A stretch of 64,000 bases of DNA from a virus (IMGVR_UViG_3300031867_000046:1255-65254), one strand, 5' to 3'. Counted from the first letter of the stretch, positions 10,895 to 57,322 are shown. Made by a program: numbers and translations. Notes: generated by a model from the letters alone, not told the origin.

Positions 10895-11044
10895 TTAGCG
10901 ATTTCTGTAGCGTCTTACAAGTGATTCGTTACGTTTGCGACGTTCATTATCCATGTCTTCACGGATTAGTTTTTCAAGGCGTTCTAATCGTCTTTCGAGA
11001 AGCTCTTTACGTTTTTTATTTTCAAGAATTAGTTTCTTATTCAT
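10895..11044 (-). CDS. 49-aa basic/coiled-coil peptide carrying the shared leader motif (not in ORF track)
   Basis: Own translation MNKKLILENKKRKELLERRLERLEKLIREDMDNERRKRNESLVRRYRNR; GAGGTG SD upstream; followed by a terminator. Confidence 0.7.
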   Translation of the reverse strand: MNKKLILENKKRKELLERRLERLEKLIREDMDNERRKRNESLVRRYRNR

Positions 11045-11084: not shown

Positions 11085-12602
11085 CTATGCGTTAAAGTCA
11101 AAATTATCTTCGCTAGGTTCTTCTTCACCACCGCCCGATTCTTCAGATGATTCATCGGTTTGCTTCTGTATATATTGACTCAAGTTCAATGCATCAACTA
11201 TATCTTCGTCATTAGAAACTCTATTTAGCAAGGCTGCCATCAATTTAGCTTTATCAGAGTTCTCAACCGCATTCTCGTCGATTGACTTTATAAGCTCGAC
11301 GATAGAATTTGCAGTTTCTATTTCAGCTTTTTGAATATCGGATAGACGTGTATCTTCAGCTGTTAAAATACGTGGCATCTCAACTGTGAAGCTTGGCGGT
11401 AAGATGTTATGTATTGAGCAAAACCAATAAACAAGATCTTTAATGCCTGACTTAATAATACGTTGGCACCGCTTAACTGTGCGTGCGTATCTTATGTCCA
11501 ACTGTGTAAGTGTAGTATCGCCTATTCCGCCGGGTGCTTCATCAGACTGCCCTAAAAATTGTTTAGGAACTTTTAATGCTCCGTAATATCTGTCATCAAA
11601 GTAATCAATATCAGCAAGAGCACTAACGTTAACTTCGCCGCCAACTTCCTGAACAGTAACAGCGCCTTGTCCATTACGAGTTGGAAAATAAACGTTACCA
11701 CCTGTTAAGATAGGTGAAGAACGCGAGCTAAACACTTCAGTGCTAACATTGATTGATTGCTTTGAAGACACTGCTGTTTTTAACTCTCTCATCATACGCG
11801 CAGTATCTTGTGACGATGCCGCACCAACGTCTACAGAAAATAAACGATAAAATGATGAGCGTGTTAATCGTGCTAAAATTAAAAGATCGTCTAATAACTG
11901 ACGCTGCTTGTAATATGGGCGTGCAGCCTCTAAAAATGAAGCGCCATACTGTATATATGATGATCCATCGTCAGATAGATAATCCTTATTAGCTCTATCT
12001 GATATAAAGTGGATAAAAGATCTTTCAGGCAACAGCTTATTTCCATCTATTGACGGGTTATCTTTGCTCTGATCTTTATAAAGATAGCCTAATGGAACGC
12101 CAAATCTGTAAATGTGAACTACGTCCTCAGGTTCAGAGATTGTAAAGAAGTCACCGACGCTATACTCTTTACGATACTCTATATTAGAGTAGTTTGTGTT
12201 TAGAAAGCACTCACCGAATGCTACGATGTTAAAAGCAAGTGGATAAATAATATCGTTAATCCGTAACTTATTACGCAAAAAGTCGGTTACCATCTCTGCA
12301 AAGTCAGGATTATCGGCTGATTCAATCCATGCAGCTAATCCAGTATCAGCATCAATAAGAGATGAGTCTTCTGAAATAAGTTCTACTGCTGAGAGAGTGA
12401 CGCCATCATTTAGCATTTCACGATAATCTTTGATTCTTGAGAGCCTATCATTTGAAAAATCTCGCAACGAAGTTATTAAATTGTTCTCACGATTCTCAAA
12501 TAATTTCTCAAGCTTATCGTCTCGTGAATCGTTGCTATCTTTAACGACCTCTATCTTTTGACCTAAGCCAAATAAATTTTTAAAAAATGATTTTAGTGAC
12601 AT
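11085..12602 (-). CDS. Portal protein, T4 gp20-like
   Basis: LEAARPYYKQRQLLDDLLILARLTRSSFYRLFSVDVG and DIDYFDDRYYGALKVPKQFL correspond to conserved gp20 blocks; 505 aa. Confidence 0.9.
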   Translation of the reverse strand: MSLKSFFKNLFGLGQKIEVVKDSNDSRDDKLEKLFENRENNLITSLRDFSNDRLSRIKDYREMLNDGVTLSAVELISEDSSLIDADTGLAAWIESADNPDFAEMVTDFLRNKLRINDIIYPLAFNIVAFGECFLNTNYSNIEYRKEYSVGDFFTISEPEDVVHIYRFGVPLGYLYKDQSKDNPSIDGNKLLPERSFIHFISDRANKDYLSDDGSSYIQYGASFLEAARPYYKQRQLLDDLLILARLTRSSFYRLFSVDVGAASSQDTARMMRELKTAVSSKQSINVSTEVFSSRSSPILTGGNVYFPTRNGQGAVTVQEVGGEVNVSALADIDYFDDRYYGALKVPKQFLGQSDEAPGGIGDTTLTQLDIRYARTVKRCQRIIKSGIKDLVYWFCSIHNILPPSFTVEMPRILTAEDTRLSDIQKAEIETANSIVELIKSIDENAVENSDKAKLMAALLNRVSNDEDIVDALNLSQYIQKQTDESSEESGGGEEEPSEDNFDFNA

Positions 12603-35974: not shown

Positions 35975-36202
35975 TTATAGCTCATCAGTTATATCTGATG
36001 TATCAGGACTTGATTCTTTTATAAACTCAACACCCAATTTCAGCACAGTCTGAAATTCCGTGTAAGTCATATTATCACTTTCTGTGAACGATATTTTAAG
36101 ACTTTTGCTCAGAAGAATCTGATTCTTTAGAAGTGCCTGCCAAATTGCCAACCTTGCTTGTAACGCCTGTAACGATATTTCTGTCGGGGCGAAAAAAATC
36201 AC
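35975..36202 (-). CDS. Small baseplate/tail assembly chaperone extension, probably expressed by frameshift from 36096-36899
   Basis: SFTESDNMTYTEFQTVL resembles the small ORF found after gp26-like genes; no ATG/SD start before the internal Met; overlaps at a T7 tract. Confidence 0.5.
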   Translation of the reverse strand: MIFFAPTEISLQALQARLAIWQALLKNQILLSKSLKISFTESDNMTYTEFQTVLKLGVEFIKESSPDTSDITDEL

Positions 36203-36899
36203 TTCCGATGCTTATATATGTAAAGTATCGTCTATCACACTCAGGACACACAACTTCACGCGTCATTTTAACGCCAAACATTCCATTTAGCTCAGCAATA
36301 GCAGAGTCAATGTAGATAGCGTCACGCGGATTTAACCCCTCATACCATTCAGCCTTTTCTACAATATCTTTGCCACCAACGTCGAGTAGTGCAACAGTAT
36401 TGTACATTTGAAGATACTCGTCTTCTTTTTTACCAAACATATTAGCACGTCGTTTAGCTTCTTGTTCAGCCTTTCTTGTGTCAGCTCCTGTTTGGAATCT
36501 AATTTTAATTTCCTGACCACAAGGTAACGTTACAGGAATAGGGTATTTGTCAGTGTATAGATAGTTAACCTCTATGTCATTTAAGTCATACTCAATAGTT
36601 TCTGATTTTTCGCAATCAGGGCACACAGTTTTTGACTTAAGTGTATTACCCAATGTCATAATACGTGTCTTAAACAACACGGCTAACAAATCTTCCTGAT
36701 TCATATCCTTTGCTTTAACAGGGCAATTAACAAGGCATCCTTCAATAAGTTGACGTAATCCTGACTCTGACGCATTAGACGCAAGTAAATCTTTATATAG
36801 ACGTGTTGTAAACGGCTTAACATGCACAACGCCGTCGAAGTCAGGAATACGATAGATAATTCCTCTTGACGGTAACGTAAGATCTTCAGTAAAACTCAT
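36096..36899 (-). CDS. Baseplate hub assembly chaperone, T4 gp26-like
   Basis: LTLPSRGIIY, VKPFTT, DLLAVLFKTRIMTLG, two CPxC motifs, ending ...SDFF. Confidence 0.75.
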   Translation of the reverse strand: MSFTEDLTLPSRGIIYRIPDFDGVVHVKPFTTRLYKDLLASNASESGLRQLIEGCLVNCPVKAKDMNQEDLLAVLFKTRIMTLGNTLKSKTVCPDCEKSETIEYDLNDIEVNYLYTDKYPIPVTLPCGQEIKIRFQTGADTRKAEQEAKRRANMFGKKEDEYLQMYNTVALLDVGGKDIVEKAEWYEGLNPRDAIYIDSAIAELNGMFGVKMTREVVCPECDRRYFTYISIGSDFFRPDRNIVTGVTSKVGNLAGTSKESDSSEQKS

Positions 36900-36950
36900 A
36901 TCAGCTCCTAATTTGTAAATAGTTGATTTAACTATATAGCATAATATAGA

Positions 36951-36956
36951 TATACA
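36951..36956 (-). promoter_or_regulatory. TGTATA motif (representative of a recurrent intergenic element, candidate phage promoter core)
   Basis: The same hexamer sits in intergenic gaps, often just downstream of terminators, at 14407, 21504, 23998, 25539, 27551, 31286, 32085, 35912, 40445, 41616, 44998, 54000, 56148, 57340. Confidence 0.5.
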
Positions 36957-36973
36957 CAGGCATAAGGCAAAAT

Positions 36974-37006
36974 AAAATCCCCATTAGTTATAACTAATGG
37001 GATTTT
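36974..37006 (-). terminator. Intrinsic terminator-like hairpin
   Basis: aaaatccccattagtt / aactaatgggatttt (one bulge). Confidence 0.7.
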
Positions 37007-37022
37007 ATAATTTTGTTATACA

Positions 37023-37562
37023 TTAAGCAAACTCAGGATTTAGATCGCCAAGTATTAAATCTGATAGGTAATCCCTTATTTCAGCCTCAGACGTATCATA
37101 GAAAGACACAGGCGATATGTCTATATCACTTGGCATGATAACTATTTCTTCACGCTTATCATCATAGAATAGCTTTGCCACTTCGTCACCTTTATAGAAC
37201 AAGTCAACATACTTATCTGTATAGTGGTCGAAATATAGTGTGTGGCCAAATATTTTTATTAGAAAACTCTGCAAGTTTCTAATAAGATCTTTACCTACGT
37301 CACTTAAAAATCCTTCAATGATTATTTTACCATGCTGATCTTTACACTCATGCTTATTAGCCCAATATGCTCTTAACGCAGCTTCAGCATCTGCTTTAGT
37401 ATCATATTCTGCATCCCAATAGTCTTTTCTATTCTTTTTCAGAATACGCCATTTATTTCCTACTTTACGAATAACACCCTTGTCTTTAGACTCGTATAGT
37501 TTACGCGCTAAAGATTCTAAACGTGCGACTCTATATTCTAGTTTATCCATAAATTTGCTCAC
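37023..37562 (-). CDS. Leader-motif protein (putative head/internal protein)
   Basis: N-terminus KLEYRVARLESLARKLYE; followed by an IRKVGNKWRI...YDTKADAEAALR domain. Confidence 0.6.
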   Translation of the reverse strand: MSKFMDKLEYRVARLESLARKLYESKDKGVIRKVGNKWRILKKNRKDYWDAEYDTKADAEAALRAYWANKHECKDQHGKIIIEGFLSDVGKDLIRNLQSFLIKIFGHTLYFDHYTDKYVDLFYKGDEVAKLFYDDKREEIVIMPSDIDISPVSFYDTSEAEIRDYLSDLILGDLNPEFA

Positions 37563-38320
37563 TAAATAATTATGCCAATATTTCTATATTCAGCTACTTT
37601 TAATTTAAAAACTTCCCATTTCTTATCGCCTACTTCAGGCGGCCATGCGAAAGGCTGAGGGCATAACTTACCAGTGCAGTCTCCATGCCGTACTATATGT
37701 GATAGCTCAATACTATATTTATTAGCTAAGTATGCAACAAGCTTTGCAGTATTATCAACAGCTGCGTCTTCAAAGTACCAGTCAGTGTCAGTAGCTTTAT
37801 TTTTACCTTTACTAGATTTTTTCTTTACGCATATATCGACGCCTATTGAGCATTTATTTCCTAAAAAGTCGTTGCCTTCGCTTTGCCATTTCAGATGATT
37901 CTTTGCAGCTAAATCATATCGCCAATCGTCGCATTTGAAATTGACTAATTCTTCTAACGACTTTTTCTCATAAGCGTTTGGTTGTTTGCATTTACCGTCG
38001 CCAACGTGCCAAGCTACATACTCTAAAGGTACCGCACTGCATATATCGTGCTCGTCTACATAAAAATGTGATGACGCACTTTCATTTTTACGCATAGCTC
38101 TGCACATACTTCTTGCGCCTACATTTATACAGGCTGTGTAATGTACAACTATCCATGTAGGACTTGTTTTAAACTTACTACCATGCGCGTATGTGTACTC
38201 AGGCTCTCTAATCGATATTTTTATAGGTTCAGGTTTAGACTCTTCTGTACACACAGTTGCCTGTTTAGCATGTACAATATTTCTAAAGATATTCCCTAGC
38301 TTGTTACATAGTCCAATCAT
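37562..38320 (-). CDS. N-acetylmuramoyl-L-alanine amidase (Amidase_2) endolysin
   Basis: WIVVHYTA, ASSHFYVD, VAWHVG, SIGVDIC, IVRH...KLCP; hydrophobic N-terminus. Confidence 0.9.
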   Translation of the reverse strand: MIGLCNKLGNIFRNIVHAKQATVCTEESKPEPIKISIREPEYTYAHGSKFKTSPTWIVVHYTACINVGARSMCRAMRKNESASSHFYVDEHDICSAVPLEYVAWHVGDGKCKQPNAYEKKSLEELVNFKCDDWRYDLAAKNHLKWQSEGNDFLGNKCSIGVDICVKKKSSKGKNKATDTDWYFEDAAVDNTAKLVAYLANKYSIELSHIVRHGDCTGKLCPQPFAWPPEVGDKKWEVFKLKVAEYRNIGIII

Positions 38321-38336
38321 AGACTCACCTCATTGT

Positions 38337-38714
38337 CTATTGACTGTTTAGTATTTGTAGAATAAACTTTGCAACAGTATTTAGATCATTATACAGATGA
38401 AACTTATTTAGTTTGCCAATAAGCTTTCCATTCTTATAAGCTTTACACATCATCTCATCTCTATCGTCATTTGTGTAGATCACAAACTTTATAGAGCCGT
38501 CGTGAGTAGATAGCTCAACATGAAACATATCATCAGTTTCTTTGTTTTCAAGTTTCTTTAACAAAGATCTTAATGAAGTGTATCTATTACATAGCTTATT
38601 TACCCACGCGTTCTCTTCTTCATGTGAAGGATTATCAAGCAGATCAAAAAACTCGTCGCTTCTGTATAATGCTCTTTCTAACTTGCAAATTCTGTATTCT
38701 AAATCTCTAAACAT
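38337..38714 (-). CDS. Leader-motif protein
   Basis: N-terminus DLEYRICKLERALY. Confidence 0.6.
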   Translation of the reverse strand: MFRDLEYRICKLERALYRSDEFFDLLDNPSHEEENAWVNKLCNRYTSLRSLLKKLENKETDDMFHVELSTHDGSIKFVIYTNDDRDEMMCKAYKNGKLIGKLNKFHLYNDLNTVAKFILQILNSQ

Positions 38715-38720
38715 GACAGA

Positions 38721-39068
38721 TTATCCGAAGTTTTCACCATAATGTTTCGCTATAGCTTTACCTACATTATTGTAAGAGTCGGCTGTCGAGAACTTTTTAT
38801 CATCATGTAGAATTTCAAATTTATTGTAGTCAGCTACAACTATATCATAGTCAGTAACAAACTTGCCATCGCCATCATAAATTCCAACGTTTACAAAACC
38901 ATAGTCTGAATTGTCGTCAGCCATATCTGCTGTGCAGTCATATCGTTTTAGATTTAAGTCTATAACTTTTTTAAGTCTTTCACAGTCAAGATTAGTCATA
39001 GACGTATTTTCGTTATATAGTAAACTCTCTAATCTACGAACGCGCATTTCTAATGATAGTTTTTTCAT
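38721..39068 (-). CDS. Leader-motif protein
   Basis: N-terminus SLEMRVRRLESLLYNE. Confidence 0.6.
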   Translation of the reverse strand: MKKLSLEMRVRRLESLLYNENTSMTNLDCERLKKVIDLNLKRYDCTADMADDNSDYGFVNVGIYDGDGKFVTDYDIVVADYNKFEILHDDKKFSTADSYNNVGKAIAKHYGENFG

Positions 39069-39070
39069 AA

Positions 39071-39325
39071 TCAAATCTGTGCCCTTTTAAGATCTTTTAT
39101 AACTTTTTGTAATCGGTTAACTGCAAATAGCACTTCTGCAACAGCTTTATTTAGCCTATCGTTACTAACTTGTGCTGATGTATTTTGCAAGTTGTAAACG
39201 TCAAGCTTATTCAAAATATGCTCTGTATTTTCTAAACAGCTAATATCAGGATCAGAGTCAGGCTCATCTTTATTTGATAGAAGCCTTTCTATTTTATACA
39301 CGCGAGACTCTAAATTTTGACTCAT
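39071..39325 (-). CDS. Leader-motif protein
   Basis: N-terminus NLESRVYKIERLLSNKDE. Confidence 0.6.
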   Translation of the reverse strand: MSQNLESRVYKIERLLSNKDEPDSDPDISCLENTEHILNKLDVYNLQNTSAQVSNDRLNKAVAEVLFAVNRLQKVIKDLKRAQI

Positions 39326-39326
39326 T

Positions 39327-40382
39327 TTATATCCCAATAATTATTCTTTGATAAATTGATAGTAATGCTGTCTGAAATCTTATATCAGACTCAAAAGAAT
39401 CCATTGTAAAGTCATCAATAGCAACCTTGTATAGATTCATAATTGACTTTGAATCATAAGCTTTTACCAATGCTTCAACGATAGGTTCAGCCACATAATC
39501 AGGATTAAATATTTTGCGTGCAAGATCAAGAAATAGATTTTGATAGTCGTCTTTTAATAAAGCGATAGGTATTCTCATTAGTCTATCAACTATTTCAAGC
39601 ATTAAGTCTTTATGCTTTTTTATATCCTCTTTTGTAGCACGCGTATTTTTAATTAGCCATAAAACATGTGCAAAGTATTTAGCAAAGTAAACGTAGCCTG
39701 ATTCCTCAAGGTTTAAGAAGTCATCTTCGCCTATTAGCATATACTTTTCAAGAAGCTTATGAGCGTCTCGCATGTGACCTTTTGATCGTAGTGCGATAAG
39801 ATTTGCAACTGCATCAGATAATTTGATATTTTTATCAATAGCAATTTTTTGCAAATTAGCTATAACTTCTTCTTTTGACTTTGTATTAAAGTTTAGTGTA
39901 AGCGCGCGTGATACGATAGGCTGAATAATTGATCGCGGATCAGTTGTACAAAGAATATAGTATATATTAGGCGGTGCTTCTTCAAACAATTTAAGTAACG
40001 ACGACTGTGCAGCACGCGAAGTTAAGTGAAATTCATCAAGAGTTATAACTCTCTTCTTTCCTGAAGGCACCCAAGTTAGATCATCATATAGCTCTCTAAT
40101 ATTTTCTACACGGTTAACAAGAGAAGAGTCAAACTCTGAATAGCATGGATCATTATCATAACTTGCTAAACAGCTACTGCAGCATCCGCATATATCATTA
40201 GTAAGATTTTCACAGTTAACAGCTTTAGCAAATATACGGGCAGACGTAGTTTTTCCACACCCATAGGCGCCCGAAAAAATATACACCGAAGGGCCCCCGT
40301 TTTTTGCAACAGCCATTAACAGTTTATTATTTACTTCGCTGCCGACTATTTCACAAAACCTTTTAGGTCTAAAATCGCTCAT
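39327..40382 (-). CDS. dnaX: DNA polymerase III gamma/tau-like clamp loader
   Basis: FRPKRFCEIVG, GAYGCGKTTSARIFAKAVNC, Zn CGCCSSC, LDEFH, LLKLFEE, SRA, GHMRDA. Confidence 0.92.
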   Translation of the reverse strand: MSDFRPKRFCEIVGSEVNNKLLMAVAKNGGPSVYIFSGAYGCGKTTSARIFAKAVNCENLTNDICGCCSSCLASYDNDPCYSEFDSSLVNRVENIRELYDDLTWVPSGKKRVITLDEFHLTSRAAQSSLLKLFEEAPPNIYYILCTTDPRSIIQPIVSRALTLNFNTKSKEEVIANLQKIAIDKNIKLSDAVANLIALRSKGHMRDAHKLLEKYMLIGEDDFLNLEESGYVYFAKYFAHVLWLIKNTRATKEDIKKHKDLMLEIVDRLMRIPIALLKDDYQNLFLDLARKIFNPDYVAEPIVEALVKAYDSKSIMNLYKVAIDDFTMDSFESDIRFQTALLSIYQRIIIGI

Positions 40383-40478
40383 ACTTAACTCTTTATAAAT
40401 AGCATATACAAATAAAGCTATACAGCATTTCACTGTATAGCTAATATACATAGTAATTACTTAAATTTTAATCGCCTA

Positions 40479-41564
40479 TTACTCAACAGCGCCAGCCTTC
40501 TCTAATAAACGTCTAACTCTATTATCAGTAGCAAGTGATAATGCAGTTTGATTTCTGTTGTCACGCACATTGACGTAAGCTCCAGCTTTTAATAAAGCTT
40601 TTACAGAGTCAACACTATCTGCCTCAGCTGCGTGCATGAGTGGTGTTTTGCCGATAGGATCTTTAGCGTTTACGTTAGCACCGGCATCAATAAATTGCTT
40701 TGCAATAGTATCGCACATACAGTCAATCGTATATGAAAGCAGCGGTGATCCATTTTTAACTTTTATATTTGGATTTGCACCTGCGTCTAATAACATCTGA
40801 ATGATATCTGAGCTGCTGTCGTCTTCACAGTAATACTCGAGTGGATATCCATCTGCGCCACTTCTCATATTTACGTCTGCACCTGCGTCGATAGCTTCTT
40901 CAATTTCATCTTCATCATAAGAGAATAGCATCTCTTGTTTGCTTTGATCGTCAAGCCACTTATCTAGAATCTTTAGAACATCTTTAAGAGATGAGCCATC
41001 AGGTAATCCAAGATCGGCGCCACGCCCACGAATAAACCTATAATAAACAAGATCTTTTAGAGTTTTCTTTTTACGTTTTAGAATGCCAATGTCAGACTCC
41101 TGAGTAAGATCATGCTGTGCAGCTATGTCGAATCTAACCTCTTTTATGTATTTAGAGATGTTTTTGATTGGACCTCTTACACACTCTTCCATTTCACGCT
41201 TTCTAAAGTCATCCTCTTTCGCTTCGCCATCTTCGCCAAATGCAAAATCGTTGTAAGGTCTAACTATGTAGTTTTCGGATAGCTTATCGCCGTCAACGAC
41301 TAATTGGACTAATACTGTGTCATCATCACGCGACTCTAACACGAATCCTTTGTCACGTGTAAAAGATACAAAGTCGTCACCGCCGTATGCGTAATTGTAA
41401 TACTTACCTGAAGCTCTAAGTTCGTCATTTGGTAAAATGTATTTTAAGTAGTCTTTTAATGAGCACACATGATATATAGTGCCAACTTGTTTAGCTTCAT
41501 ATACTTTTCGCTCTGCACTTCTAAGCCTACTTTCTAATAATGTAAGTCTTTGTTTTATATTCAT
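40479..41564 (-). CDS. Leader-motif protein with ART-like N-domain and C-terminal ankyrin repeats
   Basis: Leader LLESRLRSAERKVYE; IYHVCS..YLKYIL..DELRAS...FVSFTRD; ankyrins GADVN...GYPL, GANPN...GSPLL, GANVNAKDPIGKTPLMHAA. Ankyrin call firm, ART call weak. Confidence 0.7.
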   Translation of the reverse strand: MNIKQRLTLLESRLRSAERKVYEAKQVGTIYHVCSLKDYLKYILPNDELRASGKYYNYAYGGDDFVSFTRDKGFVLESRDDDTVLVQLVVDGDKLSENYIVRPYNDFAFGEDGEAKEDDFRKREMEECVRGPIKNISKYIKEVRFDIAAQHDLTQESDIGILKRKKKTLKDLVYYRFIRGRGADLGLPDGSSLKDVLKILDKWLDDQSKQEMLFSYDEDEIEEAIDAGADVNMRSGADGYPLEYYCEDDSSSDIIQMLLDAGANPNIKVKNGSPLLSYTIDCMCDTIAKQFIDAGANVNAKDPIGKTPLMHAAEADSVDSVKALLKAGAYVNVRDNRNQTALSLATDNRVRRLLEKAGAVE

Positions 41565-41624
41565 TAGTATACCTCAAATCGATTTAAGATAAATTTATCG
41601 CGATATTATTATAGATATACATAA

Positions 41625-41646
41625 AGGCCATCGTTAATGATGGCCT
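41625..41646 (-). terminator. Intrinsic terminator-like hairpin
   Basis: aggccatc / gatggcct. Confidence 0.65.
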
Positions 41647-41662
41647 ATTAAAATTTACATTA

Positions 41663-42979
41663 TTATAGTTTTAGAAGTTTCTTTAGTTTCTGATACGCAG
41701 CCATATCATTATCGTCTATATAGTCGATTACCATGTCCTTTTTATTATCAGAGACGTCGTTAAGAGCTGTCCTAACTGCTTTGTTATTTCCACTGTTCAA
41801 GCACATAATAACAAAGTCACCAATTAGTCTAGAGTTAAGTTTCTTAACGTTAAGGTGTTCAGCGATACGCGTTATTATATTTTTTGGAATATCGTTAAAG
41901 CCTTTAACGCGTGTAAGTAAACCACGTGCGCCAGTTATAAATCCTTCATCAAATTGTACACCATCTAACTCATCAAGTAAGAAGTCTGCGACTTGATATA
42001 AATGTCTTATCATAGCACCTCTAAAGTATAGAGGAATGATCGGTAAATTGCACCACGACTTCAGAAAATCTATAACGTTCATGCACTTTATCTGATCATC
42101 AGGTGAACAAGATACAATCGCATTTGGAATAAGTCCGTATGTATTGTTAGCGCCTGTTAAAGAGCTAGCAATTTTCTTAAATCGTTCAAGAGCGTCTTTA
42201 ATGTCATCACGGTCAATAAAACCTAGTTGCTTTTCTTTTGCAGTTAATGCAACACGCATGTCACCGCACATAGCTTTTAAGCACTCGAGATTTAATTTAA
42301 TAGCATGATTTAAAAGTATCTCTTTAATTTCGTCAACGTCTTTTATATCTGCCGCATAGCGTTTAATCATAGCTTTAACAATTCTAGGATCATCGCTTTT
42401 TAGTGCAGTATATACGTCATCAATAGATGCTGTTAACTTTGATGTGTCAATGTCACTATCATAGTCAAGCGCACCAATTGCGCCTATGTTAGACGCTTTT
42501 TGTTTGACATCTTTACCTTTTTCGTCAAGATCGAGCTCGATAGCGTCATCACCGCCGTCTTTAACTTTAACAGTTTTACCTTTATCGTCAAGATCTAGTT
42601 CACGGACAGGGTCCACCTTGCTTCTAGCATCAGCCTGTTGCTTTGCTAAATCTCTAAGTACAGCATTTGCACGTGCTCTTCGGCCTAATGGTAGCGAGCT
42701 TGGTTCATCTTTCTTTTTAGGCTCATCATCTAAGTCAAGTAATCTAAGTTTGCCATCACTATCAACATCAACATCACCTGCACCGGTTTTTACGGCAGCG
42801 TCATCAAAGATATCGAGCTCACGAACAGCTGAGTCAACTTCGCCTTGTGTTGGAATATCGACACTTGAAGTTACATCGTCAAGGTCAAGATCATCAAAAC
42901 GACCTTCAAACTTACGTGATCTCGATAGCCGATCAATATATTTTTCAAAAGACTCGTTTGTGAAAACTATGTGTTTCAT
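41663..42979 (-). CDS. Hypothetical protein with acidic LDLDD repeats and a helical C-terminus
   Basis: Repeats DDLDLDD, LLDLDDEPKK, RELDLDDKGKTVK, IELDLDEKGKDVK. Confidence 0.6.
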   Translation of the reverse strand: MKHIVFTNESFEKYIDRLSRSRKFEGRFDDLDLDDVTSSVDIPTQGEVDSAVRELDIFDDAAVKTGAGDVDVDSDGKLRLLDLDDEPKKKDEPSSLPLGRRARANAVLRDLAKQQADARSKVDPVRELDLDDKGKTVKVKDGGDDAIELDLDEKGKDVKQKASNIGAIGALDYDSDIDTSKLTASIDDVYTALKSDDPRIVKAMIKRYAADIKDVDEIKEILLNHAIKLNLECLKAMCGDMRVALTAKEKQLGFIDRDDIKDALERFKKIASSLTGANNTYGLIPNAIVSCSPDDQIKCMNVIDFLKSWCNLPIIPLYFRGAMIRHLYQVADFLLDELDGVQFDEGFITGARGLLTRVKGFNDIPKNIITRIAEHLNVKKLNSRLIGDFVIMCLNSGNNKAVRTALNDVSDNKKDMVIDYIDDNDMAAYQKLKKLLKL

Positions 42980-42996
42980 ATTTGCCTCTCTTATAA

Positions 42997-44940
42997 TTAG
43001 AAATCGTAAGTATCTTTTACTTCATCAGGTCTAACTCTGTCTGCCTGAATCCTTAACTGTCGTGCAGTGATGTTATCAGGATCGGCTTCATCTATAGCTT
43101 CTTGTACACGTGGATCAAGAAGTGCATTTGGATAAGATCTTATCTTATCTTGTAATTGAATATTCATTCTGTCTGCAGATATAGCATCAATTATTGATGA
43201 TACAAGCTCGTTAAAGGATCTTTTATCATCTATAGCCGTACGTTCTTCCTGAGACTTATCATCTGCAGATGTTATATTTGCATCATTCAAAGCGTCGATA
43301 CACTCATTAGATTTATCGCCTCTACAATCAGCGAGCTCTTGACCGAATCCATGGTCAATCATAAAGTCAATTAAGAATCTGTTATTGCTTTTTGTGATAC
43401 TACTTAGCGTGTAATGATTGATTCTAGGATGAAGTGATAAAGAGTTTATGTACTTTGACAAAAGCTTACAAACTTGTCTAGTAATTGCTTTACTAGAGCT
43501 ATTCGCTAAAAATTCAGACTCAGTCAAGCTTATTAAAATGTTACGTATAATATCAGGCGATGGCTTTTTATACTTTAATTTTAGCATATCGTTTACGCTG
43601 CTAGAGCCATCGCTTATTGCATTGTCTAGTAAACTCCATGCCCATTTATTTGGCATAGAATCAATTACATTTTGATTTAAAACTTCGCCAACAAGTGATG
43701 GTCTATTTAGAGCTGCACAAGCGTCACCTAAGTACTGTAAAAATGTTGAGAACGACGAAGTAGAAAGTGTGTTTGTAATTTTCCCACTTATAAGATCCCG
43801 TGCTATATCATAAATTTCTTGCTCGTTACCTGATACAACATCACGACGATAAGTGTTGCCTAAGAACGGCATATACCCAGCGTCTCTAATTGCATTTCTA
43901 AAGTATTTTCCAATACTTTTATTTTTATCGCTGTATAAACCAGTGATGCTTGACATATTTGACACTGCAATCTCTTTATCAGACTCAGAATTTAAATGTG
44001 TATTTATACAGTGATTAACAAAAGCCTGTTTTTCGGCAGGGTTGCTGTCTTTATAGTATGTTCCTAACACGTTAGACAATAGTTCATAAGCCCACGCACT
44101 ATTAAAGAATCCAGGTCGTATAAGTAACGGTAGATCTTTTAATGGCCATCCATTCTGTGCAGCCACCTCAAGCAAGCTTGTCCTACCTCGCCCAGCGCCA
44201 ATGTAAGACAATCTTGAGTTGATTCGCCGCGCCAAATCTTCATCGTCGTGATCAAACATGTATCTTACAATATTTGGATGGTTATATTTTACAGCATAAC
44301 TAATTGTAGCCATGTTGCGTGAGTCACTCATATTTACTTTAGCACCATGGTCAATTAGATACCGTGCAATCTCTTCAGCTTCAGGCTTATTAGACGTTAA
44401 AGCCCACATTAAAGGTGTTTTGCCGTTATCATTTTTTTGGTTTACGTCTTCACCATCATCAACAGCTTGCTTTACTTCAGCAAACTTGCGTGAAAATAGA
44501 TTAGGTGTAACAGCTCGTGCAGGTCGTGGCTGTCTAGGTGCTCTTGTAGCTCTACCTCTACTACGTGTACTTGGTTGCTCGTCACCAAAATCGCCATTAT
44601 TTGCGTCTTGCATAGCCGCTGCTATTTCAGCAGCAGATGGTCCAGCACTACCTCTATTTATAACACCAACGTCATCCCAAATATAGTTAGGGTTTGCAAC
44701 ATATTGGTTACCATGTTTTACAATAAGCCCGGGCTTTACCCAAGAATTTAACGCAGTGGTATTTGAATAGCGACTACCTAATGCAGAGTCAATCTCTTCT
44801 TTAGTAGCTGGCCCATGATCCATTAAGAAAGACCATATATTCATAGCAATCGATTGCCCACCGCGTCCAACTGATCGCTCAAGCATTAACTTTTCTAATT
44901 TTGCAACACGTTGTATTAATCTATATCGTTTATTAAACAT
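42997..44940 (-). CDS. Leader-motif protein with wHTH-like segment and ankyrin repeats
   Basis: Leader LIQRVAKLEKLMLE; IWSFLMDHGPATKEEI...GLIVKHGNQY (wHTH-like); GEDVNQKNDNGKTPLMWA, HGAKVNMSD ankyrins. Confidence 0.7.
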   Translation of the reverse strand: MFNKRYRLIQRVAKLEKLMLERSVGRGGQSIAMNIWSFLMDHGPATKEEIDSALGSRYSNTTALNSWVKPGLIVKHGNQYVANPNYIWDDVGVINRGSAGPSAAEIAAAMQDANNGDFGDEQPSTRSRGRATRAPRQPRPARAVTPNLFSRKFAEVKQAVDDGEDVNQKNDNGKTPLMWALTSNKPEAEEIARYLIDHGAKVNMSDSRNMATISYAVKYNHPNIVRYMFDHDDEDLARRINSRLSYIGAGRGRTSLLEVAAQNGWPLKDLPLLIRPGFFNSAWAYELLSNVLGTYYKDSNPAEKQAFVNHCINTHLNSESDKEIAVSNMSSITGLYSDKNKSIGKYFRNAIRDAGYMPFLGNTYRRDVVSGNEQEIYDIARDLISGKITNTLSTSSFSTFLQYLGDACAALNRPSLVGEVLNQNVIDSMPNKWAWSLLDNAISDGSSSVNDMLKLKYKKPSPDIIRNILISLTESEFLANSSSKAITRQVCKLLSKYINSLSLHPRINHYTLSSITKSNNRFLIDFMIDHGFGQELADCRGDKSNECIDALNDANITSADDKSQEERTAIDDKRSFNELVSSIIDAISADRMNIQLQDKIRSYPNALLDPRVQEAIDEADPDNITARQLRIQADRVRPDEVKDTYDF

Positions 44941-45032
44941 TTTACCACCCTTTGCTATTATAAGTAAAAAGTATTTACAATGTACACTATTTAGATATAT
45001 ACATCGTAAATACTTTTTGTGAATACAGCGCT

Positions 45033-46991
45033 CTATTGAATATCTGTTTGCTTTGCTTTTAACGCGTACACATCGTCAAGCTTGTCAAGCGAAATCTGCT
45101 TTATACCGTTAAAGTCAGATTCGTCGTTGTAATCATATATGCTATCCGAATTGTACTGTGCAAGATTTAGAATATCAGAAGGATCATACACAGCTTCTTT
45201 TGAAGTTTTGGCATTATATAAAGAGCCAACCACGCCGTCCATGATATCCTTAGTCCCGCCGTGTTTAGTGTCTAATGGGTGGTCGATTTTCCTTTTTGAT
45301 CTATACCAAATTAGATCAAATAGTTCTTTGTGTATCATATCAGCAAAGTCTTTACTAAAATGTACACAATTTTTATACATACAATCTACAAAGTAAAGAT
45401 ACTGTTCATCAGTTTTATCGACAGACTGATAAGCTACAGGTATTCCAATCTCTTCAAGATATTGACGAGACGCCATTGATTGAAATTGGTCAAACGTTAC
45501 AAGGCCAATTCTCAATCCTAATACGTCTCTCATGTACTTTATAAACTCGTGACATCTTGCAATAGATACTCGTTTAGGCGCAGGTGGTGGTACAATCCTT
45601 AAAGCGAAGTCATAGTAGAACTCAGGTGTCTCTACACCGTCAACTATCTTGCTGCCATTTTTATAACAACATGCTAAACCATACGCGTCAGTGCTAACGC
45701 CGATGTCTATATGCAAATAGCGAGGGCATTCTTTATGTGGAAACTCTATACCGTTAAGATAATACTGAATACAGTTAGACGGGTCATCGTTCATAGTCTC
45801 AACCGTGAACTCATGTTTAGAAAATAATGGCTGTATAGTTTCGTCTATACATGATTCAAAAGTTGATCTTGAAGAGAATAGTTTACCTGTACTTGCAACT
45901 GATAAACCTGAGAAATCCTGAAGACCTTGTATGATGTTACTATTGTATATGTTAAAGAAATCAATAGGCACTTCATCAATTAGTAATCTGTATTCTTGTG
46001 ACAGTCTTGCAACAGCTTCTTTTACAGATAAGCTTGGGTCTAGACTTATGCCTAATTTGACGCATAGAGTTGAAGCGCTATCTATAATAAATGGATCAAA
46101 CTTATCGTTTCCTGCAAATACAAAAAATGTCTCATCAGAGTATGTGCCTTTTGGCTTAATATCCCATAATCTTGCACGTGCGTACTTTATGGATGGATCA
46201 GTTAGAGATTTCTCATATAGTTGTTGTGTGTATGAAGACTGAAACGTAGATGACGATATAACTACAGATAGAGAGTGATTCACACCATTTTTAGTGTAAC
46301 GAGATGACTGTCTTGACATGATCGAGTCATGTAATTTAGCAACGTCACCATAGTTTACATCAGACCCTGAACTATCACCAAAGAAGTTGGCTTCGTCGAG
46401 AATGCTAGAAATTACATTCATTCCGATCATATCCCCAGTAGAACTTCCGTAAAACATTCTAACATTTTCAGGAAAGTCCAATGTGGAATTTCTATATTTA
46501 TTTCTACAGAAGTGCTCATTAAAGTATGGTATACCATCAATGATTGATCTCATTTGTCCATACCCAGTACGCTCGGCCTGAAACTTTGTCAAAGAAAAGT
46601 AAAGGAATGCCGTAAATGAGTTAGACATCATACCGAACAAGCCGGCTATATTTTTATAACATGAAAGTTCGTAAAGCTTTCTAAGAAGGATATACAGTCC
46701 GCACGTAGATTTACCAGTACCAATCCCGCCAGTCAAAACAACGGTGGTATATTTCTGACCGCCATCAAATATATCGCAAATAAGATCCTTCCAAAAAGGG
46801 TATAGCTTAGAGTTCCCATCACGCCCTATATAGTAGTCGTCAGACACCCATTTTTTACATGGTACAATCTCTCGTATCTGTTCGCTTTCTTTTACAGATA
46901 TCTTATCAATTACGTTTGCTATTTGCTCAATCTTTTTGTCGCCTGATAATATTTTTACTAACTTTGCAATTTTAGCGTCTCTTTTTGCCAT
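45033..46991 (-). CDS. terL: Terminase large subunit
   Basis: Walker A LTGGIGTGKST, Walker B ILDEANF, nuclease LHIDIG, VTFDQFQS, KIDHP...KDIMDGVVG. Confidence 0.92.
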   Translation of the reverse strand: MAKRDAKIAKLVKILSGDKKIEQIANVIDKISVKESEQIREIVPCKKWVSDDYYIGRDGNSKLYPFWKDLICDIFDGGQKYTTVVLTGGIGTGKSTCGLYILLRKLYELSCYKNIAGLFGMMSNSFTAFLYFSLTKFQAERTGYGQMRSIIDGIPYFNEHFCRNKYRNSTLDFPENVRMFYGSSTGDMIGMNVISSILDEANFFGDSSGSDVNYGDVAKLHDSIMSRQSSRYTKNGVNHSLSVVISSSTFQSSYTQQLYEKSLTDPSIKYARARLWDIKPKGTYSDETFFVFAGNDKFDPFIIDSASTLCVKLGISLDPSLSVKEAVARLSQEYRLLIDEVPIDFFNIYNSNIIQGLQDFSGLSVASTGKLFSSRSTFESCIDETIQPLFSKHEFTVETMNDDPSNCIQYYLNGIEFPHKECPRYLHIDIGVSTDAYGLACCYKNGSKIVDGVETPEFYYDFALRIVPPPAPKRVSIARCHEFIKYMRDVLGLRIGLVTFDQFQSMASRQYLEEIGIPVAYQSVDKTDEQYLYFVDCMYKNCVHFSKDFADMIHKELFDLIWYRSKRKIDHPLDTKHGGTKDIMDGVVGSLYNAKTSKEAVYDPSDILNLAQYNSDSIYDYNDESDFNGIKQISLDKLDDVYALKAKQTDIQ

Positions 46992-47063
46992 AACTAACAA
47001 CTCCAAATAAATTATTATGTAAAGTTAATTATTTAGATATTGCTATATAGCAGATAAAATAAA

Positions 47064-47089
47064 AGCGAGTATACTAACGTATACTCGCT
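47064..47089 (-). terminator. Intrinsic terminator-like hairpin
   Basis: agcgagtatac / gtatactcgct. Confidence 0.75.
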
Positions 47090-47113
47090 AATTTTGTTAA
47101 TTACAATTCATGC

Positions 47114-47611
47114 TTACCAGTTCATTTCTTTCTGTGACTGTGCAGCATCCGCACTATGGCGCATATCCTGGAAGTCAGGGTCTTCCCACATAGCGTCATC
47201 GCTGTTATCATAAGCTGCATTACCAGTTGTAATAGTAATCATTACTTTACCTGTAGGATTTGTAATGGTAGCATCTTCAAATCCACGCTTGTTGATATAG
47301 CGATTAAGTATGTTATACATTTTAGCAAGAGTGTTTTCATCAAGATCTTCACCAGTGTAAGATCCTAGTTTATCGCTGAATACAACAATCACACCAGTTG
47401 GATTTTTTGTTGTGCGAGCGCGTAACGGGTAGCTGTACCCACGTGTGTAGCGACCACTGACATCAAAGTAATCTTGCAAATCAGGATGCCGTGCGATAAG
47501 ATTGAATACTTCGTTAGCCACCTTGTCTAAATCAGTTTTAGACATTTTCTTTTCATTAACTAATAATTTTTCTAAACGAGCAATTCTCTGTTCAAGTGTA
47601 AGTTTACGCAT
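47114..47611 (-). CDS. Leader-motif protein
   Basis: Start at 47611 (GAGGAG SD): MRKLTLEQRIARLEKLLVNE. Confidence 0.65.
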   Translation of the reverse strand: MRKLTLEQRIARLEKLLVNEKKMSKTDLDKVANEVFNLIARHPDLQDYFDVSGRYTRGYSYPLRARTTKNPTGVIVVFSDKLGSYTGEDLDENTLAKMYNILNRYINKRGFEDATITNPTGKVMITITTGNAAYDNSDDAMWEDPDFQDMRHSADAAQSQKEMNW

Positions 47612-49512: not shown

Positions 49513-50373
49513 CTACAAATCACAGTTGTTAAAAGCAAAAGTTTCACCAACCGATTCAGCTTCTTTATTTAGAAGCTCTGCGATATGCGTAAGTGTTTGT
49601 TTGTAAAACTTGTTAAAGATTTGATTGCTAACTGTTTTCCCATTTGTAGTGTTGTATAGCATTTTAGACAGCTCTTTCTTACCTAACTGATGCACGATAA
49701 ACAACTTCGCAAGAGTAAACTCACTAAACGGGATTACTGTGTCATTGGCTTTAAACACGAGTCGATTGTTTGGCGTTTTGTCCATTTCAGATAAAATCCA
49801 CTCAATACGAGTATCAGCGTCAGCACTGTTACCGACATCTTCAGAGTCGTCTTTTAACATCAAGTCGCCTACTGTTGTGTCAGTATCATCGTTACACGGC
49901 TTATCTAAAATACAGACTTCATCAGCGACTGATACCTTCCTATGAGTTTGCCACATAGCAGTTCGCATAAGCCAACAATGGACAGCAGGTTCAAGTTTAT
50001 AATTAGCATTAAATCGAAGAATGCCATCATTAAGCAACAGCTTATAGGCACAGATTTGATAGAAGTCGTTGTATGACATAAGCCAACGCAATCGTGCTTC
50101 ACACGGTTTATAATAGATACTTTTTGACTTCCGTTTAAGTATATCGAGGACTTCTTCAGTGGACATCACGAGATATTTAAGGTTAGCTCGCTCAATGTCA
50201 GACATGTTGTCGATGTCAAACTGTTTAGTTTCAAGCATAAGATCAGATAACTTATGCACAAGCTTATTCTTACCTGACGTTAGTAAATCTAACTGTGCCT
50301 TTGTACAGGTTGACATATTGAGATTATACTTTTTCTCAATGTCGCGGATAGATTTAGATTTGCTTTGTACCAT
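49513..50373 (-). CDS. Phage sigma70-family transcription factor
   Basis: Region-2-like SYNDFYQICAYKLL...RFN...AVHCWLMR and region-3.2-like ILDKPCNDDTDTTVGDLM. Confidence 0.6.
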   Translation of the reverse strand: MVQSKSKSIRDIEKKYNLNMSTCTKAQLDLLTSGKNKLVHKLSDLMLETKQFDIDNMSDIERANLKYLVMSTEEVLDILKRKSKSIYYKPCEARLRWLMSYNDFYQICAYKLLLNDGILRFNANYKLEPAVHCWLMRTAMWQTHRKVSVADEVCILDKPCNDDTDTTVGDLMLKDDSEDVGNSADADTRIEWILSEMDKTPNNRLVFKANDTVIPFSEFTLAKLFIVHQLGKKELSKMLYNTTNGKTVSNQIFNKFYKQTLTHIAELLNKEAESVGETFAFNNCDL

Positions 50374-50415
50374 ACTAATGCAAGCCTCCTATGCTTAATG
50401 TTATTATGTGCTATC

Positions 50416-50444
50416 ATAATAACACGGTTACTGTTGCATGTCAA
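50416..50444 (-). promoter_or_regulatory. Sigma70-type promoter P1
   Basis: TTGACA-N17-TATTAT on the minus strand. Confidence 0.8.
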
Positions 50445-50516
50445 CTAAAATTTTAAGATTTTTCTTATCAAACTTCAGCATAAAATCGGTTCCGTTTTGA
50501 TCGATTTTGTGAGCAC

Positions 50517-50545
50517 ATTCTATCAAAGGCTGTGGCATTTGTCAA
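50517..50545 (-). promoter_or_regulatory. Sigma70-type promoter P2
   Basis: TTGACA-N17-TAGAAT with TGn extension. Confidence 0.8.
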
Positions 50546-50626
50546 TAGAAAAACTCTTTGTAATCAAAAATTTTCCTATTCAGTTTTGAAAGAAATCTGA
50601 ACAGTTTTTGTTCAGATTATGAGCGT

Positions 50627-50655
50627 ATAGTATCACAGTCGACTATGCCTGTCAA
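50627..50655 (-). promoter_or_regulatory. Sigma70-type promoter P3
   Basis: TTGACA-N17-TACTAT with TGn extension. Confidence 0.75.
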
Positions 50656-50666
50656 CTAAAAAATTT

Positions 50667-50692
50667 AGCGCACTAAAAATATTTTAGTGCGC
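50667..50692 (-). terminator. Intrinsic terminator-like hairpin after the spanins
   Basis: gcgcactaaaa / ttttagtgcgc. Confidence 0.7.
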
Positions 50693-50697
50693 ATTTT

Positions 50698-51501: not shown

Positions 51502-51502
51502 T

Positions 51503-52602: not shown

Positions 52603-52610
52603 ACTATTAC

Positions 52611-53969: not shown

Positions 53970-54024
53970 AGATAGTGGCTATAATGCCACACTATTTAGT
54001 ATACATCAATTTGTATTACAAATA

Positions 54025-54052: not shown

Positions 54053-55240
54053 TTATTTTGAGTGATAGTCTTTAACGTCAGATGTAATAATCTCATCAGC
54101 AAAATCAGTTAGAGTCATATAGATAAAATCATTATTCTTATATTTCCTTAATGGGTAATCACGCGTAATTTTGTAGTCAGACTTTCTATACTCAATGTTG
54201 TATTGTATTTCTTGATTATACTTTAGATTTCTCTTAGGCCCGATCCATAATCTACATACACATGGATTTCTATCATCATAATAGTCAACCATAACACCTT
54301 CTGTGTTAGCATCTACTCCACAGTAGTTGTATATGTATTCAGTAAGATCTTTGATCTTCTTTTTAAACTTCATTCCAGAACTTATACCATCGACACAAGT
54401 CATCACGTCGTCTTCAATACGATCAACGAGCTCGTCTAATGAATTAATCCATGCAGACCATCGTTTTTCCTTACGTTCGTCTGCATAGTATGGATAGCTT
54501 TCTTTAAACTCGTCACCCGAGTTCATTTTTATAATATACCTTAAATAAGGCACCTTATTGTCACGGTCTACAATACTTACTTCAGCAAATCCTTCATCTC
54601 TATCTTGCTTGCAAATAACTTCATGCCATTTTGGAGTAATAAACTTTCTGATTTTATCACATAGCTTATCAACTTCTACACTGAAATCGTATCTGCACCG
54701 ATCAAGATCATACTTTACTTCTTTTTCTTTAGCTTTTAACGCTTTTACGAGTCTGTAATTAGCACGTATAGAAGACATATCACTTATTTCTTCTATTTCG
54801 CCTTGCAACTCATTTGTTTTATCTAATCCAAATCTTGACGCACCTACACCTAAGTTGTCAAGGTCTTCACGTATAAGATCAAGGGCTTGTGCTAAAGTAA
54901 CATGATTACGTTTATCAAATTTACCTTTAAATAAATAATCAGCTAGCCAATCATCTATAGTACTATACTTAAATCGTCTATGACTTTTTGCCATATCATT
55001 AGAGATATCGTCTAATTCGTCATCCAAATTCTTATGCTTGTCATTTTTTAAGATAGCATTTGCTTCGTCGTCTAACTCGTCGTCAAAAGACTTATATCCT
55101 TTTAGCAATTCAGCTGCTGCATTGTCCAACTCACTGTCTAAGTCAGACGCTTCATAGTACTTTTTACGAAGTGCTCTTTTCTCTAAAATTCTTAAACGTT
55201 TATCAAGTCGATTTAATCTTTCTAACGTTTTATAACGCAT
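54053..55240 (-). CDS. Leader-motif protein with acidic LDDELD repeats
   Basis: Start at 55240: MRYKTLERLNRLDKRLRILEKRALRKKYYE; repeats LDSELDNAAAELLK, FDDELDDEANAILK, LDDELDDISNDMAK. Confidence 0.6.
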   Translation of the reverse strand: MRYKTLERLNRLDKRLRILEKRALRKKYYEASDLDSELDNAAAELLKGYKSFDDELDDEANAILKNDKHKNLDDELDDISNDMAKSHRRFKYSTIDDWLADYLFKGKFDKRNHVTLAQALDLIREDLDNLGVGASRFGLDKTNELQGEIEEISDMSSIRANYRLVKALKAKEKEVKYDLDRCRYDFSVEVDKLCDKIRKFITPKWHEVICKQDRDEGFAEVSIVDRDNKVPYLRYIIKMNSGDEFKESYPYYADERKEKRWSAWINSLDELVDRIEDDVMTCVDGISSGMKFKKKIKDLTEYIYNYCGVDANTEGVMVDYYDDRNPCVCRLWIGPKRNLKYNQEIQYNIEYRKSDYKITRDYPLRKYKNNDFIYMTLTDFADEIITSDVKDYHSK

Positions 55241-56174: not shown

Positions 56175-57322
56175 CTAATAAAGCAAATCATCAGAAGATT
56201 TTTTATCAGAATAATTTCTAACACGCACCTTTTCGTCAGTGCCTTTTGCATCTTTATATTTTACATACTTATAAAACTCACATAGCCACATCTCAATCTG
56301 ATTTAATGTGAAATTAAACTTTGTATGCTTATACTTATTAGCATCTTTATCCCATGCAACGTAGTAGAACCCGTCTGTATCAGGGAACTTTTCGTCGTGC
56401 ATTTTATTTAATGAGTCTTCAGCTATATCACGCAAATACTTTATAGCGTCAATGACATCTTTATTAGTTTTTACATTTTTGAAGATGTATTTACTGCCTG
56501 CTGACGAACCAGGTCCAGAGTTTGTAGCTGAATTAGCGTCGTAGCTCATCAAGTCAAGTCCTGCATACTCTTTTATGTAGCACATGTCTTGGAAAACTCA
56601 TGAGCCATAAATCGTCCGCAGCCATCGAGAGTGTCACTCATCCAATCAATGAAATCGTCAGCCGTTTTATCACTATCGTGAGATTGCTTCATCCAATCGT
56701 AAATTTCTTTTATATGACCGTGCAATCTCTTAAGCGAGTACTTTGCAAAATACTCACCCATATCTGCAAATTTAATTTTCTTACCAGATTCATCAACAAC
56801 TTCATGCTGCGAAAATTGACAGAACGCTCCATGTGCGATCGGAATATCTTTGCTAATAATGTTTTTCTTTAAATAAGAATAGAACTTTGCAGGGCTGTAG
56901 TCATTGTAATCAGCAATAGCGTCAACAGTCTCAAATACGTTAGGATTGTTTATTAGTCTAAAGAATAGCATTTTCCAAATTAGATTTATATAGTTATCAT
57001 CATCTGACTTGTACTTATGCCAGCAATCCTTGTTTAGAATTATGTTCTTGATAAGATACTGTGAAACCCTGTCTAATTCTCTATATACATTTGTGAAACG
57101 ATATTTTGAATAGAACTTATCTTTTGTCCATTCTTCTTGTGGGAGGTGTTCGATAAACCTTCTATACCAAATGTTTTGTCGTTCGTACATCGTATAGAAA
57201 AATAGCTCAAGTCTTTTCTTATATGGTTTGAACCGATTATCTTCTAATTTCTTAACCTTTGACTCTAATACAGAAAGTCTATCGCATATATTTCTAATAA
57301 AAGCTTCATTCATTTGCTGCAC
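56175..57322 (-). pseudogene. aGPT-Pplase1 / 5-hmdU DNA kinase helical-domain family gene split by a 1-nt frameshift
   Basis: ERQNIW...EWTKDKFYSKYRFTNVYRELDRVS in 56573-57322; GPGS...QIEMWLCEFYKY in 56175-56585; one extra T in GAGTTTTCC restores ...MAHEFFQDMCYIKEY. Confidence 0.8.

Follow-up and report, generated by a model that had tools for sequence, protein, structure and literature searches.

A short heptad tag on otherwise largely unrelated proteins of a T4-like rumen jumbo phage: a candidate capsid-targeting signal

Nine proteins, most of them unrelated in the rest of their sequence, open with the same short peptide (hereafter the tag) in a 64-kb stretch of viral DNA, the window, which is part of one 65.2-kb record (IMGVR_UViG_3300031867_000046) and derives from an uncultured T4-like jumbo phage of the rumen. 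The tag has the consensus [KR]-[KR]-L-[ST]-L-E-x-R-I-x-R-L-E-[KR]-L-L and is an amphipathic heptad of 12-13 residues; in related phages the same motif lies inside the prohead protease and at the ends of two further head-module proteins, and many copies are followed by a Glu site that recurs in the capsid protein. On this sequence evidence we consider it fairly probable that the tag system is a variant, in different sequence, of T4 capsid targeting, by which proteins would be loaded into the head and then clipped.

The tag in the window and in related phages

The motif L-E-x-R-[IVL]-x-x-L-E-x-x-L matches eight times in the six-frame translation of the window, always on the coding (minus) strand and always 7-49 residues past the preceding stop; a ninth member, the gene that starts at 42997 (tagged genes are named here by their first coordinate), is one position off, with I for the first E. 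The tag lies 2-19 residues from the likely start Met in all nine. An unbiased comparison recovers the same genes: when 12-mers from the first 50 residues of all window open reading frames (ORFs) were compared by BLOSUM score, with 30 shuffles and internal segments as controls, the N-terminal segments gave 30 edges and a largest cluster of 17, as against 4-15 edges and clusters of at most 6 in the shuffles and 7 edges among internal segments, and the core of the cluster consists of 10895, 37023, 38337, 38721, 39071, 40479, 42997, 47114 and 54053. The earlier note on this DNA had named an equal frequency of the motif in shuffled or internal segments as grounds for giving the leader up; the N-terminal excess stands. 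The tagged genes are as follows.

10895..11044, minus strand: tag-only ORF of 49 residues; motif core 10964-10999; Glu sites I-R-E/D and R-N-E/S
37023..37550, minus strand: tagged gene; motif core 37506-37541; candidate cut L-Y-E/S, Glu codon 37491-37493
38337..38714, minus strand: tagged small gene; motif core 38667-38702; first Glu past the tag at 38652-38654 (S-D-E/F)
38721..39068, minus strand: tagged small gene; motif core 39018-39053; candidate cut Y-N-E/N at 39009-39011
39071..39325, minus strand: tagged small gene; motif core 39278-39313; first Glu past the tag at 39263-39265 (K-D-E/P)
40479..41564, minus strand: tagged gene; motif core 41502-41537; candidate cut V-Y-E/A, Glu codon 41496-41498
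42997..44940, minus strand: tagged gene for a 647-residue ankyrin-repeat protein; motif core 44884-44919; candidate cut M-L-E/R at 44878-44880
47114..47611, minus strand: tagged gene; motif core 47561-47596; candidate cut V-N-E/K at 47552-47554
54053..55240, minus strand: tagged gene; motif core 55172-55207, with D for the first E; candidate cut Y-Y-E/A at 55151-55153

The earlier note had counted about ten leader-bearing ORFs, of which these nine carry the heptad motif; its weak tenth member (56573..57322, minus strand) was rejected, as the motif hidden Markov model (HMM) gives it 0.9 bits and PF18723 (E 1.6e-20) identifies it as a 5-hmdU DNA kinase helical-domain protein. That domain, found at 56573-57322 and also at 56175-56585, points in its own right to thymidine hypermodification.

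The tag is conserved as a peptide and not as a DNA repeat, because conserved Arg codons switch between CGN and AGR and Leu codons between TTR and CTN among tags, and because mean pairwise identity of the tags at codon positions 1, 2 and 3 is 0.44, 0.66 and 0.43. A tblastn search with a 30-residue tag against 50,697 cultured phage records returned nothing at E up to 10, a result to which the low-complexity filter may contribute, and the Pfam coiled-coil families had no match on the window members. By BLASTP the cargo behind the tags is mostly unrelated, so that the complete divergence described in the earlier note holds with two exceptions: 40479 and 42997 have ankyrin repeats in common (E 8e-8), and a single protein of a related phage contains homologues of both 38337 and 38721 as tandem domains.

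Ten related IMG/VR loci were retrieved by their large terminase (72-84% identity; contigs up to 204 kb), and four of them were read whole: G001 (204 kb, 95% complete), G002 (156 kb), G003 (112 kb) and G004 (91 kb). A first HMM, made from the nine window tags, brought up many further tags in the relatives; a second-round HMM, run on five related records, gave 51 matches of at least 8 bits, as against 0 in 10 shuffled proteomes. In relatives of 91-204 kb, 5-16 proteins per record are tagged. Of the 51 matches, 40 fall in the first 45 residues of their protein, 10 in the last 25 and one in between; the terminal zones comprise about 41% of residues. The leader thus was rightly described as N-terminal for the majority (40/51), but 10/51 stand at the extreme C-terminus and some tags lie between two domains; there are also proteins with two tags, placed in tandem or at opposite ends. 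In the G001 homologue of the 37023 cargo, a nucleotidyltransferase domain precedes an internal tag. Two side observations concern such architectures: an NMNAT-like enzyme (GRFQPF..GH; G001 179818-180435) has a C-terminal tag, and the metagenome protein P0038 joins NMNAT, tag, ART-like (ADP-ribosyltransferase-like) domain and ankyrin repeats, that is, NAD-making and NAD-using modules in one chain.

Tagged genes are less conserved than their neighbours (median identity x coverage to G001 30 vs 56, one-sided p 0.027), and T4 internal-protein loci are likewise variable (PMC3012670, PMC9026906). The 54053 gene, with its likely start at 55240, lies outside the 37023-47611 range that holds most of the others, and its weak G001 homologue (191120-192856) is likewise tagged; 39071 has no homologue in G001. 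The cargo of 38337 is homologous to domains 1 and 2, and that of 38721 to domain 3, of the protein encoded by G001 97527-98648. We note separately that this G001 gene has one tag followed by three small domains, whereas in the window (38337-39074) the domains form separate, individually tagged genes; judged from sequence, the two arrangements represent gene fission or fusion at domain joints.

Head-maturation proteins and the Glu site

The link between the tag and the head comes from the relatives. Peptidase_S77 (PF03420, the T4 gp21 family) exceeds the Pfam cut-off in G001, G002 and G003, in a protein (encoded in G001 at 56488-57501) that also matches phrog_207, and in the relatives its gene adjoins the gene for a gp23-type capsid protein (phrog_138/PF07068), PF07068 being recorded on 120 of the 120 listed capsid homologues. 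The earlier note had cited the prohead proteases of T4 (gp21) and of phiKZ/SPN3US: the lineage has a gp21-family protease together with a gp23-family capsid protein, so that it is the T4 kind that applies and not the phiKZ/SPN3US kind, with the head genes read in relatives and not on this contig. A PF03420 search of the window's own contig, which is about 30% complete, found none. The C-terminal extension of the protease, helical and about 130 residues long, has a conserved F-N-E-S and a terminal Y-E.

The tag motif recurs in the protease and in two other head proteins. In G001 the strict regular expression gives 12 matches, as against 0.13 in shuffles, and the sole internal one is the protease, at residue 203; in G002 and G003 the internal match again falls in the protease, and a tagged G002 protein contributes a further one, its second copy. 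The protease segment lies just behind the catalytic domain, is identical or nearly so in G001, G002 and G003, and is followed by K-R-E. Two other head-module proteins of the three relatives, a very acidic protein of 154 residues and a protein of 315 residues encoded downstream of the capsid gene, have at their C-terminal end the motif and then a basic tail, and each retains K-N-E. The expectation that an HMM scan of relatives would reach head proteins was therefore borne out by the protease and these two. No gp22-type scaffold gene was recognisable near the protease and capsid genes (G001 50238-58310), and no tag-like motif was seen when the capsid propeptide was inspected by eye. Directly downstream of the G001 capsid gene, at 52848-54946, a homing/HNH-type endonuclease gene (PHROG match) and an unannotated plus-strand ORF have been inserted.

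A Glu site follows the tag with clear excess. K-N-E occurs after N-terminal tags in 19 of 54 segments vs 0.46 expected (about 40-fold; the maximum was 4 in 2000 random draws), at 0-10 residues from the tag, and most other N-terminal tags have Phi-Y-E (Phi, hydrophobic residue) or similar. Among the nine window members the contexts are x-N-E in three, Phi-Y-E in three and less typical in three (M-L-E, S-D-E, K-D-E). Away from tags, K-N-E recurs at conserved positions in the same head proteins, and in the capsid protein it occupies residues 52-54: across 120 capsid homologues (65-100% identity) N-E is invariant while neighbouring columns vary, with K/R at P3 in 107/120, M/V/I at P4 and S/G/A/N at P1'. 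A recurrent Glu at the end of the leader, as claimed earlier, is thus seen at the level of sequence both behind the tags and in the capsid protein. The position of the capsid N-E leads us to predict a propeptide of about 54 residues; that of T4 has 65 (PMC5694885). In an alignment to mature gp23 (PDB 5vf3), T4 gp23 Glu65/Ala66 maps about 9 residues upstream of the capsid N-E site.

Cargo proteins and genomic surroundings

The best-defined cargo is that of 40479. In the AlphaFold2 (AF2) prediction for this protein (pLDDT 89.6), residues 3-21 form a helix, the candidate cut lies in a loop of residues 22-28, and a globular domain opens with a strand at residue 29; the layout is thus a tag helix, a loop with V-Y-E/A, a probable ART-fold domain (about 24-190) and ankyrin repeats (Pfam). 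As the whole-protein fold search was swamped by the ankyrin repeats, residues 24-190 were refolded alone, and this domain matches Tpt1 (Z 8.4, root-mean-square deviation 2.8, 98 aligned) and DarT (Z 7.8, 134 aligned), with further matches to pertussis, cholera and scabin-type enzymes; nearly all listed matches have the ART or a related fold. Invariant in the family are H32, S67-F-T69 and E124/E126/E127, which compare with the H, S-x-T and E-x-E-type positions of ARTs. The ART-like domain had no Pfam match, and a profile search of PDB sequences gave chance hits only. The modelled domain, with its moderate Z values, appears to have an ART fold and is not a proven enzyme; the earlier claim of ART-like and ankyrin cargo agrees with it at the level of fold. 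The protein has 186 homologues on contigs up to 255 kb; in 42 aligned ones the tag consensus is L-E-x-R-I-x-x-L-E-K, and Glu23 before [AGS]-K-Q-V-G is invariant. Homologues of 40479 and of the capsid protein occur on contigs up to 290 kb. In the other ankyrin protein, 42997, paralogues and orthologues in the relatives retain the Glu, followed by [KR]-[ST]-x-G-R-G.

The 37023 cargo opens with an AP2/Arm-like DNA-binding-type module. Its family has 99 homologues, many of them tagged and some with short basic leaders that end in Phi-x-E; the module stands behind the coiled-coil tag, behind such basic leaders, or at the C-terminal end of other proteins, and an acidic x-N-E or x-x-E joint precedes it in every setting. 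Since the same cargo occurs with different leaders, tag and cargo are separable. The module (about 45 residues, G-V-I-R-K-V-G-N-K-W..., residues about 27-70 of 37023-37550; P0185-P0219) is mobile in its own right: it is 80-93% identical among otherwise different proteins, N- or C-terminal, always behind an acidic Glu-rich joint. In Pfam and PHROG scans most tagged cargo and the two head-module proteins were unmatched beyond ankyrin and nucleotidyltransferase domains.

The window genes all lie on the minus strand of an AT-rich contig (about 35% GC; CheckV completeness about 30%), synteny places the window at 58-118 kb of G001, and its T4-like genes comprise large terminase, portal, UvsX-like recombinase and T4-type baseplate hub protein, three of which mark the setting of the tagged genes.

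11085..12602, minus strand: portal gene (phrog_213, E 2.3e-34)
36096-36899, minus strand: T4-type baseplate hub protein gene
45033..47006, minus strand: large terminase gene, the query for relatives

The tag-only ORF 10895 sits directly downstream of the portal gene, where T4 has its small core-protein genes, and its positional counterpart in G001 (72421-72588) likewise adjoins the portal gene. The 47114 gene lies directly upstream of the terminase gene, with a likely start ATG at 47611 behind a GAGGAG box. Between the two tagged ankyrin genes lies an untagged, well-conserved gene of 438 residues (41663-42979; 64% to G001), whose product has D/K-rich repeats in its N-terminal half and no family match. 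A TGTATATA-like box, which resembles an extended -10, stands upstream of most operon starts (e.g. in the gaps 36900-37022, 41565-41662, 44941-45032 and 47007-47113), often after the GC-rich hairpin and T-run terminator of the preceding gene. For the T4-type TATAAATA the coding strand shows no enrichment (6 against 8).

Proposed loading mechanism and its alternatives

We propose that the tag serves as a terminal address label that recruits unrelated proteins into the prohead core of a T4-like jumbo phage. It would form a short helix whose hydrophobic face (positions 1, 5, 8 and 12) and charges (E2, R4 and E9) would allow pairing with like helices; R4 and E9 stand five residues apart, as the partners of a g-e' salt bridge do in parallel coiled coils. 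Candidate partner helices are those of the protease, just behind its catalytic domain, and of the C-terminal ends of the two head-module proteins. After assembly of the shell, the S77 protease would cut behind the Glu in the flexible stretch that adjoins the tag, at Phi-[KR]-N-E or Phi-[YFL]-E followed by a small residue, a site of the type that appears to end the capsid propeptide. Such a cut would free the cargo inside the head (the ART-fold/ankyrin protein, other ankyrin proteins, small DNA-binding-type modules and, in relatives, nucleotidyltransferases), and the freed cargo could leave with the DNA.

The closest known parallel is T4: there a capsid-targeting sequence (CTS) of 10 residues is enough to have a protein packaged, the protease gp21 cleaves behind Glu, and Alt is shortened at either end (PMC9026906, PMC5694885). 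As with the T4 CTS of IPI, IPII, IPIII and Alt, a short terminal peptide is the sole common part of diverse, fast-evolving proteins (PMC9026906, PMC5694885, PMC3012670); the protease belongs to the same S77 family, the capsid protein is of gp23 type, and the candidate cut follows Glu with a hydrophobic residue upstream. One cargo appears to have an ART fold, like that of Alt, and the trimming of Alt at both ends may be compared with the tags at either terminus described here (PMC5694885). The differences are equally marked: the tag does not resemble the T4 CTS in sequence (as quoted in PMC9026906), and it is a heptad helix of 12-13 residues with a separate site at variable distance, whereas the T4 peptide of 10 residues ends in its site. 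Further, 5-16 proteins per record carry it, against a handful in T4; it occurs also at C-termini, between domains and inside the protease; and the site preferred is Phi-[KR]-N-E, the whole known here from sequence. The lack of resemblance to the T4 CTS, together with the lack of a match in cultured phages, indicates that the tag is an analogue and not a homologue of the T4 tag.

Giant phages of the phiKZ, 201phi2-1 and SPN3US type (gp175/gp245) likewise have many head-internal proteins that are cut after Glu by a gp21-related protease; paralogues share N-terminal propeptide ends, and the protease trims its own C-terminus (PMC5694885). Their propeptides, in contrast, mostly exceed 100 residues and have no single short motif, the site is S/A/G-x-E or A-x-E, and it is the present group that matches Pfam Peptidase_S77 and Gp23 directly. 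In the systems of the HK97 protease C-terminal tail and the encapsulin cargo-loading peptides, a short terminal peptide suffices for loading into an HK97-fold shell. The HK97 protease, as here, itself bears a targeting element; unlike the tag, the HK97 tail and the encapsulin peptides bind the shell interior directly, with neither a heptad helix nor removal at a Glu site.

Several points weigh against capsid targeting followed by clipping. We infer the binding partner, cleavage, packaging and ejection; the window contig is without protease and capsid genes, and the link to the head rests on relatives whose terminases are 72-84% identical. Just 3/9 window members have x-N-E, 3/9 have an atypical Glu, and by chance alone a Glu will often fall within 10 residues. 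At the C-terminal tags the side that faces the cargo lacks a clear site, and those proteins may therefore retain the tag. Leader and K-N-E could in part be inherited as one duplicated cassette, and the invariance of N-E in the capsid protein could be structural. NMNAT-like and similar cargo has no obvious need for a location in the capsid. Finally, the TGTATATA-like box is found in front of tagged genes as well as of replication and baseplate genes; as promoters do not separate tagged from replication genes, they carry no information on late expression of the tagged genes.

Among the alternatives, we regard it as unlikely, and still worth keeping in view, that the tags themselves build the scaffold, bundling into a shared coiled-coil core that would shape the prohead and set its cargo. 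No gp22-type gene is recognisable beside the protease and capsid genes, and one self-complementary zipper is common to the protease, two acidic proteins of the head module and, per record, 5-16 cargo proteins, at either end. Cuts by the protease at the N-E and Y-E joints would then take the core apart.

An explanation to which we likewise assign a low probability sees in the tag a general short leucine zipper, which dimerises, trimerises or pairs proteins in the infected cell with no role in the capsid, the Glu being the next heptad position or a helix cap. The canonical a/d pattern with its R4-E9 spacing fits such a zipper, as do the occurrence of the tag at either terminus and sometimes between domains, its presence on NMNAT-like and nucleotidyltransferase enzymes, which are often oligomeric, and the similarity of a double-tag G001 protein, below the Pfam gathering threshold, to TolA_bind_tri (PF16331, 17.0 vs 30.1 bits) and Gal4_dimer (PF03902, 15.3 vs 22). 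Twelve residues are, however, too few for a stable stand-alone coiled coil; K-N-E, which the capsid protein has as an invariant element, stands at variable distance and hence does not continue the heptad. It also speaks against a general zipper that the internal matches of the strict pattern fall on the prohead protease in each of three relatives, with the G002 second copy in addition, and that orthologous cargo occurs with quite different short leaders, so that a zipper is not needed for the function of the cargo.

Rather unlikely, in our judgement, is a virion-assembly tag that is directed to another site (portal or neck, tail, capsid surface) or that is not cleaved, such that the tag stays on and fits a coiled-coil socket. 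The C-terminal tags, with their short basic tails and without a clear Glu site towards the cargo, would suit this role, as would the position of the tag-only ORF, flanked by portal and tail-like genes, and that of the tagged cluster, flanked by the terminase and baseplate-hub genes; ankyrin repeats could be displayed as binding modules. On the other hand, the motif is inside the prohead protease, which acts within the prohead, the Glu site is tightly linked to the tag and common to the capsid propeptide boundary, and a putative ART-fold enzyme is more plausibly injected than carried on the surface, for which T4 Alt is the precedent (PMC5694885).

It is very improbable that the tag is there to be recognised by an enzyme that modifies or degrades the protein, as in the leader of a ribosomally synthesized and post-translationally modified peptide (RiPP) or a degron: the five relatives contain no radical-SAM/SPASM gene above cut-off (the only match reaches 18.9 bits, in a 159-residue ORF), and the only enzyme that co-occurs with the tag and bears the motif is the prohead protease. 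Chance arising from a composition rich in Lys, Glu and Leu, or a DNA repeat at gene starts, is ruled out, even though the genome is AT-rich and shuffled N-termini yield some high-scoring 12-mer pairs, by the N-terminal clustering, by the shuffled-proteome HMM scan (0 matches vs 51), by synonymous variation that includes codon-family switches, and by conservation of the motif in orthologues across the relatives.

If capsid targeting by the tag is correct, a widespread clade of rumen and gut jumbo phages would load a large, fast-changing set of proteins by means of one helical tag, and the products of the tagged genes would be candidates, in a group without cultured members, for injected proteins that take over the host or counter its defences. 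The reading also predicts a specificity, Phi-[KR]-N-E, for a T4-family prohead protease. It would constitute a second, sequence-unrelated case of the T4 capsid-targeting principle, one usable to load foreign proteins into capsids; and tags that act from either terminus and are common to the protease would bear on how the prohead core of T4-like phages is organised.

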